Of a DNA stretch of 64,000 nt, positions 2,610-33,467 are shown piece by piece. Numbering within the stretch: the stretch's first letter is position 1; every line of letters starts with the position of its first letter. Source of the stretch: Acidobacteriota bacterium (lineage in GTDB: Bacteria; Acidobacteriota; Terriglobia; Terriglobales; Acidobacteriaceae); contig JAJYBU010000006.1 in NCBI GenBank assembly GCA_021778845.1, positions 15,677 to 79,676 on the forward strand. The letters run 5' to 3'. Made by a program: the position numbers and the translations under genes. The notes under the pieces were generated by a model. That model saw only the letters and a program-made list of their open reading frames with translations. It was not told where the DNA came from and searched no databases.

Positions 2610-4280
2610 CTATTGTACGAAGTTTGGAGGCTGACTCCGAATCCCGGTGAGAGCTTCGGCGAGTTTTGCGCGCGGAATTTTGACTTGCTCGCCGGTGGCG
2701 AAGGTTTTTACGGTGGCGATGTTGGTGGCAACTTCATCTTCGCCGAGGAGGATGATGTGGCGGGCCAGGGTGTCGGCGATGTCGAAGGACTTGCGGAGTT
2801 TGAAGGCGCCGTCGCCTACTTCTACCTTGAGGCCGGCGGTGCGGAGTTCGCGGGCCAGGGCGAGGGCGGCGGGGTTCTGGGCTGGGGCCAGGGGAGCGAT
2901 GTAGGCGTCCAGTTTGGGCGGGGCGGTCGAGGTGTTGTCGGCTTCGGCCTGTGCCTGAAGGGTAAGGATGAGGCGGTCTTCGCCGATGGCGAAGCCGATG
3001 CCGGGGGCGCGCGGGCCGCCCAGCATCTCGGAGAGGCCGTCGTAGCGGCCGCCGCCGAGGAGGGCGTTCTGGGTGCCGAGACCGGTGGTGACGGTGAACT
3101 CGAAGGTGGTGCGGGTGTAGTAGTCGAGGCCGCGGACGAGGCGCGGGTTGAGGTGGTAGGGGATACCGCAGGCGTCGAGGGCGGCGAGGACCTGGTCGAA
3201 GTGGGCTTTGGATTCGGGGCCGAGGTAGTCGGCGATTTTGGGCAGGGCGTTGATGAGGTCCTGATCGGCTTCGTCCTTGCTGTCGAGGACGCGGAGCGGG
3301 TTGGTGTCGGCGCGGCGCTGGTTGTCGGGGCAGAGCTGGTGCTTGATGGGTTGCAGGGCTTGGCGGAGGGCGGCGTTGTAGCGGACGCGGTCCTCGGAGC
3401 TGCCGACGGAGTTGAGTTCGAGACGCCAGTCGCGGATGCCTAGCTCGGTGAGGAGGCTGGCGAGCATCTCGAGGATCTCGGCGTCGCGGAGAGGGGATTC
3501 CGCGCCGGAGGATTGCGGTCCGATGACTTCGGCGCCGATCTGCCAGAACTGGCGGTAGCGTCCGCGCTGAGGACGCTCGCGGCGGAACTGCGGGCCGATG
3601 TAGTAGAGCTTTTGCAGGTTGCCGGTGTTGCCGAGCTGGTGCTCGATGTAGGCGCGGACGACTCCGGCGGTGGATTCCGGGCGGAGGGTGAGGGACTGGG
3701 ACGAGCGGTTGAACTCTCCAAAAGCATATTCGACCACGAGATCGGGACCGGGATGCTCCTCTTGTTTGTTAGGCACCGACGAAGCTACGACGATACGTTT
3801 TTTTGCGGGTGGATTGTGACCGAGGTGTCGCTGAGATTCTTGCACCTTCCGGATTGTTTCAACGTCCAACCGTCCGTGGAAAGCTACGAGTTCGTATGTG
3901 CCAGACCTGTAGCGCACTTCTGCATCAAATGTGCCGTCAGATTGTTGCTTTGCGCTGCTAATACGGCCACTCGAGCGAGTCCACCAGTCGTAAAGCATCG
4001 CTTTATCAAAGCGCTCACCATCATCCCAGGTGAACATTTCCTTGCTGACGATGTCGGTCTCTTCGCCGACGCCGCGAGCGAAGAGTTCGGTGGTTTCGAA
4101 GATCGGGGTGCGGATTTCGCCGAAGCCGTAGCGGGCGAAGAGGGCGCGGGCGGTGGCCTCGACGTGGTTCCAGAGCGGGGTCTGGTCAGGGAGCAGGTCG
4201 CGGGTGCCGCGGACGGCCTTGAGGGTGGGGCGAGCCGGGGTTTTGGGGGACTTCGGCGCGGGGTTCTTGCTTTCGGTCAT
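2610..4280 (-). CDS. hisS: Histidyl-tRNA synthetase with an internal insertion of about 105 aa
   Basis: VRGTRD, RTPIFE, DIVSKEMF, LRPESTAG, FRRERPQRGRYRQF, LVRGLDYY, GGGRYDGL, C-terminal anticodon domain; 556 aa versus the usual ~420-450. Confidence 0.97.
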   Translation of the reverse strand: MTESKNPAPKSPKTPARPTLKAVRGTRDLLPDQTPLWNHVEATARALFARYGFGEIRTPIFETTELFARGVGEETDIVSKEMFTWDDGERFDKAMLYDWWTRSSGRISSAKQQSDGTFDAEVRYRSGTYELVAFHGRLDVETIRKVQESQRHLGHNPPAKKRIVVASSVPNKQEEHPGPDLVVEYAFGEFNRSSQSLTLRPESTAGVVRAYIEHQLGNTGNLQKLYYIGPQFRRERPQRGRYRQFWQIGAEVIGPQSSGAESPLRDAEILEMLASLLTELGIRDWRLELNSVGSSEDRVRYNAALRQALQPIKHQLCPDNQRRADTNPLRVLDSKDEADQDLINALPKIADYLGPESKAHFDQVLAALDACGIPYHLNPRLVRGLDYYTRTTFEFTVTTGLGTQNALLGGGRYDGLSEMLGGPRAPGIGFAIGEDRLILTLQAQAEADNTSTAPPKLDAYIAPLAPAQNPAALALARELRTAGLKVEVGDGAFKLRKSFDIADTLARHIILLGEDEVATNIATVKTFATGEQVKIPRAKLAEALTGIRSQPPNFVQ

Positions 4281-4346
4281 AGAGATACAGTCTATCGTCC
4301 TGCACGAACGGCCAGAGGCTTCGCGTGGGGTGGAAAGGACGGTATC

Positions 4347-4630
4347 CCCACCCCCCCTCCCCCCCCGACTTTTTCTCGTAAAGTATTCAGGCGGATGAGG
4401 TTAAGTCTGTTTTGCCTGTAAGGTATTCTATCCAGGATGGTTACGGGTAAGATATTGCTTGTAAAGGGGTTAGCGGCCGCGTGAGGCGGGGGTGGGGCCT
4501 GGCTTTGATCCCTACTTCTATTGTAGTGAGTTGATGGGGGGTACTATGCCAGGTTTTGAAAATATAAATCGCCTTTGTTTATAGGGGGTTTGGCGATTTC
4601 ATGGTCCGCGAGGGGCTTGACGGCAATTTC
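4347..4630. repeat. Dispersed non-coding element of about 280 bp, copy 1
   Basis: Aligns by eye with 32548-32825: poly-C, three TAA-N19-TTA boxes, TTTGATCCCTACTTCTATTGTAGTGAG, AAATATAAATCGCCTTTGTTTATAGGGGGTTT, GGGGCTTGAC. Confidence 0.92.
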
Positions 4631-32186: not shown

Positions 32187-32547
32187 GTGGATTTCGATGA
32201 AGGCGTTTGCGCTGCGTTCAGTACATATGCAGGAGCATCTTTGTATTTCAGCTTGGGTTTACGCTGCTGGATCAATCGAGCGAGCTTGAAATGGAGGACG
32301 AGGAAGGACGTAGCCTATGCCCGCCCCATTGGGTAGACTGCCTGGCCGAGTTGGGTGGGGCTGTGTCGAGTTATGCCCTCGGGAGATGCCACATCCGGTG
32401 CAGCGGACGGCAACTCGGACGGCACCTGCACAGCAGGCTGCTCGGGCTTCGTTGCCGTCTGCGTCCAGGCGCCAGGCACTATGGAGTGACCAGGAGGGGT
32501 GCTTCTGCTCGTGCCTTGTCGGGCCAAAGTGCGCCCGGCAGGGGGGC

Positions 32548-32825
32548 CTCCCCCCCCCCCATGACTTTTTGGCCTAAAGTATTCAAAGGAATTGGGTTAA
32601 GCCTGTTTTCCCCGTAAAGTATTCTGTTCAGGTGGGTTATAGCTAAGATATTGCTTTTAGAGGGGTTAGCGGCTGTGTTTGGCAGGGTGGGGATTGGTTT
32701 TGATCCCTACTTCTATTGTAGTGAGCCGGTGGGGGGTATTATGCCAGGTTTTCGAAATATAAATCGCCTTTGTTTATAGGGGGTTTTGCGATTTTCTGGT
32801 GGGTGGGGGGCTTGACAGGGATTTG
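32548..32825. repeat. Dispersed non-coding element of about 280 bp, copy 2 (same orientation as copy 1)
   Basis: Colinear with 4347-4630; TAA-N19-TTA boxes start at 32575, 32615 and 32644. Confidence 0.92.
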
Positions 32826-32881
32826 CGCGGACGGCGCGCGTGGTACATGGGCGTCCGGGAAGAGTCATGGAGGAGGGAAGG

Positions 32882-32966: not shown

Positions 32967-33467
32967 TTAGGAGTTGAAGGAGTGGGGGGTGGAGGTGGGG
33001 GTGCCGGAACTGAGTTGGGCGTCTTCGATCTCGCGGGTCTGGATTCGGGCGTCGATGAGGAGGCCGATGCCGATGCCGAGGGGGATGAGGCCGACGGCGG
33101 CTCCGGAGAGGACGTCGCGCTGCTGAAGGACGGCGGCAAGGGTGATGAAGAAGAGGATGAGGCCGATGGCAGCGCCGCAGAGAACGATGCCTCCCTGACG
33201 AGAGTTGGCGCGGCGGCGGAGGGAGTTGGGAGCGGTCTGGCCGCGGCCCTGGAAGACGGAACTGATGGCGACTTCGTCGGTGGTGGGCGGAGGGGTCATG
33301 CCGCGGGCGATGGCGGCGAGGCGTTCCTGGCTCTCCATCTCGCGGCGGCGGGTGCGGGACCAGGTCTTGAAGCCGACGATGCCGAGCACCATGAGACAGG
33401 CGGCAACGGGAACGATGAAGGGGCTGTTGGCGACGTCGCCGAGGGTGGAGAGGGATTCGAGAATCAT
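32967..33467 (-). CDS. DUF6249-like membrane protein
   Basis: TM, then ERLAAIARG, then two TMs with GLIPLGIGIGLL; AAGGAG RBS. Confidence 0.7.
   Translation of the reverse strand: MILESLSTLGDVANSPFIVPVAACLMVLGIVGFKTWSRTRRREMESQERLAAIARGMTPPPTTDEVAISSVFQGRGQTAPNSLRRRANSRQGGIVLCGAAIGLILFFITLAAVLQQRDVLSGAAVGLIPLGIGIGLLIDARIQTREIEDAQLSSGTPTSTPHSFNS

Follow-up and report, generated by a model that had tools for sequence, protein, structure and literature searches.

A dispersed phased-box element marks the start of polar strand-composition gradients in Acidobacteriaceae chromosomes and may be an auxiliary origin

What is the non-coding element that occurs twice in the 64-kb stretch of Acidobacteriaceae DNA analysed here (the window), and what does it do? 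The initial annotation described two diverged copies in the same orientation, and both are present, with 82% identity across 279 nt. We read the element on the minus strand of the window, where its order is a TGTCAA(G/C)CCCC end, a degenerate box, TGGCATA, the hexamer TACAAT, a variable middle (the middle spans 20-450 nt across the family), the boxes and a tail of the G7AG6 type. Copy 1 (4351-4622, minus strand) runs from a head end of the TGTCAA type at 4622 (here CGTCAA) to a G8AG7 tail at 4351-4366, which resembles the G5AG7 core of mitochondrial CSB II. Its head (4566-4622) consists of the conserved TGTCAA(G/C)CCCC end and a degenerate fourth box (4566-4591), and is followed by a promoter-like module (4520-4552, with TGGCATA at 4545-4552 and the -10-like TACAAT at 4520-4525) and by three 25-bp TAA..TTR boxes at 4379-4403, 4419-4443 and 4448-4472. 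Copy 2 (32547-32817, minus strand) has its head end at 32817, the -10-like hexamer at 32715-32720, boxes at 32575-32599, 32615-32639 and 32644-32668, and a G11AG2 tail at 32547-32560. The box starts first reported (4379/4419/4448 and 32575/32615/32644) are exact, and ATTGTA (TACAAT on the minus strand) and the outward-facing TTGAC are where they were described.

The two copies belong to a large family, and the description of a two-copy element is not correct. Searching the 3.77-Mb genome of the window (G000) with an iterated nhmmer profile gave 37 head modules, along with about 9 further partial copies; 36 copies were catalogued end to end and one missed the tail pattern. Copies carry 0-9 boxes of 25 bp, with conserved arms (TAA in 98%, TTR in 98%) and drifting interiors. 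The 40- and 29-bp spacing stands for the window pair, but spacings in the copies of G000 and its relatives cluster at 29/30 bp (89), 40/41 bp (18) and 64-66 bp (38). Likewise, the supposedly invariant TTTGATCCC..GTGAG block is shared by the two close window copies, which also both have the arms of an AAATCGC..GCGATTT palindrome, but neither feature is found in the family head consensus. The hexamer TACAAT lies at +96/97 from the head in 32/36 copies and at +74/75 in two. A second promoter-like class, in which just 7 nt separate TTGACA from a TANNNT hexamer, precedes some tails (G000 C15:18176 and C61:11376; L041; L236 in G041).

The element is a member of no family tested. The 36 copies lack terminal inverted repeats (best 14-nt end match 6-10), as first proposed, and target duplications (longest junction duplication 0-4 nt), and there is no meaningful Rfam match at the gathering or E-value level. 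The box matrix is asymmetric rather than palindromic, and the matrix and fold tests revealed no 20-40 bp palindrome hairpin of the REP/BIME type. The earlier judgement that this is not a CRISPR, REP or MITE holds. A structured RNA, the other option then raised, is unsupported: the window copies show no excess fold stability (z 0.29 and 0.21), and across 27 copies (mean z -0.39) there is no stable RNA fold. REP/BIME repeats with IHF sites (RIB/RIP) and MITEs are likewise intergenic, dispersed and non-coding with IHF-like boxes, and the element, like REP/BIME, often lies inside REP-rich spacers. It differs in being non-palindromic, without TIR or TSD, and in its asymmetric ends, promoter-like module and polar long-range skew. 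The right half of the box, which we take to be IHF-like, fits only the (C/G)AA-N4-TTR part of the WATCAA-N4-TTR consensus; G000 has three HU/IHF genes. No prior description of the element appeared in listings of openly available full-text literature.

With copy 1 as BLAST query, matches were obtained in 7/24 congeners, and five close relatives have 6-36 head matches each. The box-plus-tail pattern occurs in 52/102 genomes of the family and in 1/18 genomes of the sister family (reversed-pattern control, 0-1 matches per genome). Among 90 loci in relatives, 27 are syntenic with a G000 copy, 9 are syntenic with an empty G000 site, 19 are at synteny breaks and 35 are unscorable. Because 27/36 syntenic loci share the copy with G000, the copies are old and conserved; they are inherited for the most part, yet turn over. 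One site can hold different head and body subtypes between species. No match was found among 72,556 plasmids, nor in viral contigs.

The main feature of the element was outside the view of the initial annotation: each copy lies where a polar gradient of strand composition begins, 20-40 kb long, that leaves via the TGTCAA end. The plus strand of the window is G-rich from copy 1 (4623-30000), where the 4-fold skew is 0.65-0.84 to 16 kb and falls unevenly to 0.04 at 28-30 kb, and again from copy 2 (32818-64000, plus strand), where it is 0.90 at 32-34 kb and 0.71-0.82 to 48 kb and declines irregularly to 0.05 at 62-64 kb. Plotted along the window, skew forms a saw-tooth, reset at copy 2; the trough near 27-30 kb may be deepened by highly expressed ribosomal genes. 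GC skew throughout G000 is strong, patchy and organised on the element, whose strand is C-rich at 33/36 copies. In element coordinates, the skew of 4-fold degenerate sites on the head side is -0.72 in the first 2.5 kb, -0.56 at 10 kb and -0.41 at 20 kb, and fades to about -0.05 at 50 kb; successive 2.5-kb bins on the tail side give -0.56, -0.34, -0.19 and -0.12. Genes on either strand are affected equally. The head-side 10 kb is negative at 32/32 scorable copies (mean -0.63), compared with -0.35 +/- 0.06 (lowest -0.54) in 1000 draws of random intergenic sites oriented C-rich-forward, and the head-minus-tail asymmetry is -0.45 (20/26 negative) versus -0.05 +/- 0.09 in this control. Two mobilisable regions of G000 (C7:35081-41458 and C4:6186-11342, in each of which a relaxase-like gene accompanies a coupling protein and a small accessory gene) have nearby skew of about 0.

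On the outgoing strand T/C goes from 0.28 to 0.52 and A/G from 0.27 to 0.11, a shift that fits raised C-to-T and A-to-G on that strand. This pair of changes is the reported signature of single-stranded or leading-strand-sequence DNA (PMC3269012). A polymerase that turns everything to G is unnecessary, as the purine share in 7/7 distance bins follows from the two transition shifts to within 0.03.

The gradient recurs in 40 windows from seven other genomes of three genera, which were chosen from pattern lists blind to skew: the head side is negative in 39/40 and the asymmetry is present in 35/40. The skew step, with a G-rich outgoing strand, is one-sided in most of these genomes. The sign reverses from one side of the element to the other in G092, where skew is -0.27 to -0.71 upstream and, in 5/6, +0.36 to +0.62 downstream, which is the pattern of a bidirectional origin; G-rich skew on the tail side is seen in G092 and part of G041, not in G000. 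G003, with one tail match and no head pattern, has ordinary two-replichore skew with a G-rich leading strand, within +/-0.28 in 12/13 windows. Heads point away from dnaA, and tails toward it, in 148/226 copies (65%; 50-100% by genome) of closed or near-closed genomes, for some of which lists are partial and sizes rounded. The share stands at 50% in G041 and G115. Counter-oriented copies in G041 keep the gradient (3/3 tested), so the main fork is not required. We regard the element-anchored gradient as a solid, replicated observation, and reach its cause by inference.

A candidate partner of the element is a CCCH zinc-finger protein (genes were called with a home-made dicodon caller, not a standard annotator). 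G000 has two such genes, each starting 10-71 nt past a tail. The family is found in 77/102 genomes and in 52/52 tail-positive genomes; the tail occurs in 0/25 zinc-finger-negative genomes, and 25 zinc-finger-positive genomes lack the tail pattern (cross-tabulated by hand, with kin genomes that are not independent). Thirteen of 25 distinct homologues have a G-run within 75 nt and 18 have TGTCAA up to 1 kb upstream; neither head nor tail is near 7/25 genes examined, and six homologues represent one orthologous locus. The family forms 5,116 clusters at 50% identity, with atlas neighbours in Acidobacteriota, and lacks Pfam or NCBIfam matches above cut-off; weak zf-primase (8/24 members) and DUF5763 (9/24) matches fall below it. 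It was not found in viral contigs, phages or PHROGs, and a phage, GTA or plasmid origin of element or protein was rejected for want of matches.

Structural models (pLDDT 77 and 82) have a zinc finger, a helical hairpin and a C-terminal strand pair. There was no Foldseek match at E<=0.001, the best VIA match (Z 6.2) was to unrelated helical hairpins, and the fold searches named no homologue; no catalytic fold was seen, and longer forms carry only unrelated fused domains. A four-copy prediction gave a homo-oligomer score of 0.64 (best control 0.01), with at least 85% of contacts agreeing between runs and pLDDT of at least 71; this mark was reached by 20/30 solved homodimers and 1/23 single chains in a calibration that used two copies only. 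The models support self-association, and we infer that the protein may bind the phased boxes. The earlier proposal that a dimeric protein binds them gains indirect support from the conserved arms and spacing and the co-occurring candidate oligomer; neither a recombinase-type core site nor a cognate recombinase turned up. At several loci (L011:1-4501, corresponding to G000 C23:67607-69121; L013-L017; L022) a small basic ORF with an LPPHELNARR motif separates promoter from boxes within the element, and the zinc-finger gene comes after the element; this arrangement is a candidate complete or master unit.

We propose that the element is a dispersed, lineage-wide, oriC-independent auxiliary origin of strand-asymmetric DNA synthesis, and put the probability of this reading at a little under one half (about 0.45). 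Transcription from the -10 module would produce a short RNA that crosses the boxes and, on reaching the G-run, stalls as a hybrid G-quadruplex/R-loop, as at mitochondrial CSB II. The site would be opened by the oligomeric zinc-finger protein on binding the boxes, possibly helped by IHF/HU, and a fork or displacement loop would exit via the TGTCAA end. Since the outgoing strand would be leading-strand sequence and exposed single-stranded, it would gain C-to-T and A-to-G changes, fewer and fewer across 20-40 kb as tracts terminate; some lineages (G092, part of G041) would send out a second fork through the tail. Finally, copies would spread, and the chromosome would be rearranged, when ectopic recombination or template switching takes place between them. 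At that same slightly-below-even probability, the case for an origin is made by the promoter, the phased boxes, the tail of CSB II form, autonomy from the main fork, the mild bias against head-on orientation and the G092 flip. With an amplitude of 0.7-0.9, the gradient is three- to fourfold stronger than the replichore skew seen in G003, and an ordinary replisome is therefore insufficient without an extra assumption. Contigs from four runs of one study, a weak test, showed no depth step at copy 2; one 691-nt skip over this copy has a short side of only 24 nt and was not counted. Among the strains of that study, the G-run length at copy 2 (window 32550) varies, and from about 100 nt outside its head (window 32920) other DNA is found.

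In its working the element is most like an R-loop or iteron origin. Iteron replicons, ColE1 and T4 oriF are such origins of plasmids and phages. Phased direct repeats, as in iteron replicons, are present, as is a promoter-like module upstream of a G-run motif, as in origins of the CSB II/ColE1 type, the latter recognised by its motifs. IHF-like half sites, an AT-rich patch and a small cognate gene near some copies are further likenesses. The differences are the absence of a Rep_3/RepA-type initiator and of plasmid matches, a chromosomal multi-copy state and a CCCH zinc-finger partner: no known iteron-type Rep initiator gene is adjacent, and the adjacent gene, when present, belongs to the zinc-finger family. 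At the mitochondrial origin, the G5AG7 core of CSB II is reported to form an RNA:DNA hybrid quadruplex and to end primer transcripts (PMC4176368, PMC3488243). The element shares with the mitochondrial heavy-strand origin, whose promoter is LSP, a promoter-like sequence 130-600 nt ahead of a G-run-A-G-run motif and a distance-dependent downstream gradient of C-to-T and A-to-G (PMC4176368, PMC3488243, PMC3269012). The element differs in being bacterial, in its 20-45 copies per chromosome and phased 25-bp boxes, and in a main gradient opposed to the predicted transcript. In most lineages the main gradient opposes the predicted direction of transcription, unlike CSB II or ColE1 priming.

Mammalian replication N/U-domains reportedly have saw-tooth skew with jumps at defined sites and decay between them; the present system differs in its scale of tens of kb, its prokaryotic setting and its tie to a sequence-defined repeat. 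A more doubtful extension of our reading, to which we give clearly less than an even chance, is that Acidobacteriaceae chromosomes hold dozens of mobile oriC-independent origins, promoter-box-G-run modules, each with a dedicated oligomeric zinc-finger protein, that would fire one- or two-sidedly and produce saw-tooth GC skew across most of the genome, and in whose place some lineages could take up unrelated families of origins. If true, it would be the first case of a bacterial chromosome with a sequence-defined multi-origin system.

The window itself probably records a rearrangement at the element. The element precedes hisS (2610-4280, minus strand) in G000, G001, G012, G051 and G059. The DUF6249 gene (32967-33467, minus strand) is directly upstream of hisS, by 43-305 nt, in 17/22 element-free congeners with a scorable hisS start, and the gap is 1.5-2.8 kb in three element-bearing relatives. 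Along G000 come DUF6249, copy 2, a 28-kb stretch of housekeeping genes (4623-32546; TonB receptor, fabF/acp, rplM-rpsI-rpsB-tsf), copy 1 and hisS. Because this block and the copies separate genes that are adjacent in congeners, the pair probably reflects a block that arrived through recombination at the element, and under our proposal it would exemplify copy-copy rearrangement. Flanks that in G001 and G059 are divided between two facing copies are joined in G051, which represents an inversion between copies. Both inversions and translocations are found at element copies. The HisS protein of the window has an insertion of ~100 residues (about 90-190) that is absent from most congeners and shared by G002, G010 and G054.

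An unlikely alternative is that the element is a chromosomal oriT, nicked near the tail by a relaxase acting in trans, from which the outgoing strand is transferred element-first and recombines, building the gradient and spreading the element. This would suit a one-sided, decaying gradient that carries a single-strand signature and is independent of main-fork direction, as well as the variable head-side DNA (including the 1.5-2.8 kb between DUF6249 and hisS in three relatives), the loose ends about 100 nt outside the copy 2 head and the IHF-like right half of the boxes. Contig C7 of G000 also has, beside a coupling protein, a gene that we take to be relaxase-like from its N-terminal motif. However, PF02534 coupling proteins occur in 57/102 genomes and were not found in the element-rich G099, G092 and G114, no conserved nic hairpin was seen, and the plasmid search was empty; the G092 sign flip and the same-sign shoulder on the tail side are unexpected from one nick. 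Hfr-type oriT and IS91-ISCR share a one-sided process, variable cargo on one flank and the lack of TIR or target duplication, but profiles of PF02534 and PF04986 showed no relaxase system or Y2 transposase co-occurring with the element, and its skew flips two-sidedly in some lineages. IS91/ISCR was rejected: the Y2 transposase PF04986 was not found in G000, G041, G099 or G092 and occurs in 26/102 genomes overall.

Quite unlikely, in our estimate, is a programmed fork-stall or break site, at which protein-bound boxes and a G-run R-loop collapse the fork and recombination-dependent restart, by a migrating D-loop, re-synthesises 20-40 kb mutagenically. The short tail-side shoulder of the same sign (0.57 at 1-2 kb, 0.27 at 5-7.5 kb) is what resection would produce, the main fork enters by the tail at 65% of copies, and the inversions and translocations at copies are also consistent with restart. 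Against it, G041 copies that oppose the main fork keep their gradient, orientation is even in G041 and G115, and the skew flips in G092. A reading of the tail as KOPS (taken to be GGGNAGGG) was rejected: it is the G-poor strand that carries the tail, and in most cases the tail faces dnaA, the reverse of KOPS.

The element could also be a marker rather than a cause, if passive, non-autonomous mobile repeats insert, oriented, into DNA that is already skewed; we consider this very unlikely. In its favour, REP-like GTCATTCC and GCCGTCCGCGCAGGAC repeats (44 and 18 G000 copies) are likewise nearly all on the C-rich strand, with negative upstream skew at 40/42 and 15/15, some skewed blocks have no site, and the genome has Y1 HUH transposases. 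Skew differs little between the two sides of the REP-like repeats, however (-0.63/-0.38 and -0.61/-0.53), whereas it peaks and steps at the element. REP-like repeats cluster by element heads, including at 4290-4320 and near 32830 in the window. Y1 transposases as the cause were rejected, as they occur in genomes with and without the element. Against passive insertion there are also the sharing of copies at 27/36 syntenic loci, the lack of TIR or target duplication, and the relaxation of skew in aligned codons where a copy is gone: three relatives with a copy have -0.81 to -0.86 versus -0.06 to -0.17 in G000 without it, and further genes give -0.93 versus -0.17, -0.93 versus -0.49 and -0.67 versus +0.32. 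Beside a copy, skew stays high in the majority of the orthologous genes tested. Several hold -0.67 to -0.89 without a detected adjacent G000 copy, which we read as relics or undetected sites.

Among 244 strongly skewed 4-kb bins of G000, 118 are accounted for by this element family and 35 by a second repeat; 62 are close to contig ends, and 29 are unexplained. Four tail-only copies have a gradient and a fifth has it weakly; two atypical tail-like sites (C18:109466 and C5:27283) are without one. The second repeat, unrelated to the element, has 31 copies in G000 with two 12-bp direct repeats CACTCTCAGCRC about 31 bp apart (for example C68:45477, C75:149315 and C16:16112 on the plus strand and C16:11609 on the minus strand; loci L248-L263). 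It also starts a polar gradient, from 0.58 to 0 by 20 kb, and therefore the boxes and tail of the element are not the sole trigger. A pattern search did not find this repeat in 120 other genomes or in the five close relatives, and it is apparently specific to G000. Some of its copies are back to back and some are in frame inside RNase R-like genes (C34:95370 and 96403; C63:1754); one relaxed match is at C13:82994, outside the window.

Most improbable is that the copies are pac-like packaging-initiation sites for directional transduction, the zinc-finger protein being a small-terminase-like adaptor for a helper phage: the protein layout (nucleic-acid-binding head, helical hairpin, C-terminal strands, side-by-side oligomer), which is reminiscent of small terminases, and a decay length near a headful speak for it, but the zinc-finger family was not found in viral contigs, phages or PHROGs, nor the element in viral contigs, Terminase_6N (the single terminase family profiled) is in 9/102 genomes and not in G000, and double-stranded packaging yields no obvious strand-specific transitions. 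Small-terminase motifs of the HGGxSTG type had no coding match in G000.

The accepted view is that a bacterial chromosome has a single replication origin. Earlier multi-origin claims were reportedly based on irregular skew plots without an underlying sequence element (PMC3269012). Here, a defined repeat predicts the position, strand and reach of skew in several genera of a family that is dominant in soil and has cultured members, which makes the multi-origin question directly testable. Whether origin, oriT or restart site, the element points to a polar process that reshapes synonymous codons over most of the genome and drives rearrangements. It can confound skew-based origin prediction, codon-usage analysis and binning in Acidobacteria, and provides a lead for a zinc-finger family of over 5,000 unannotated protein clusters.

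Further observations concern individual loci. Directly outside several heads (G000 C20:597-938; L023; L041) are genes that, from their motifs, we take to be toxin-antitoxin-like. An IS1595-like element is inserted in one element head (L016:2000-2470). Three loci of G012 (L097, L102 and G012:C28:15564) have an identical element head, and the two of these that were examined lead to the same G000 flanking genes, which suggests a duplicated or redundantly assembled segment.
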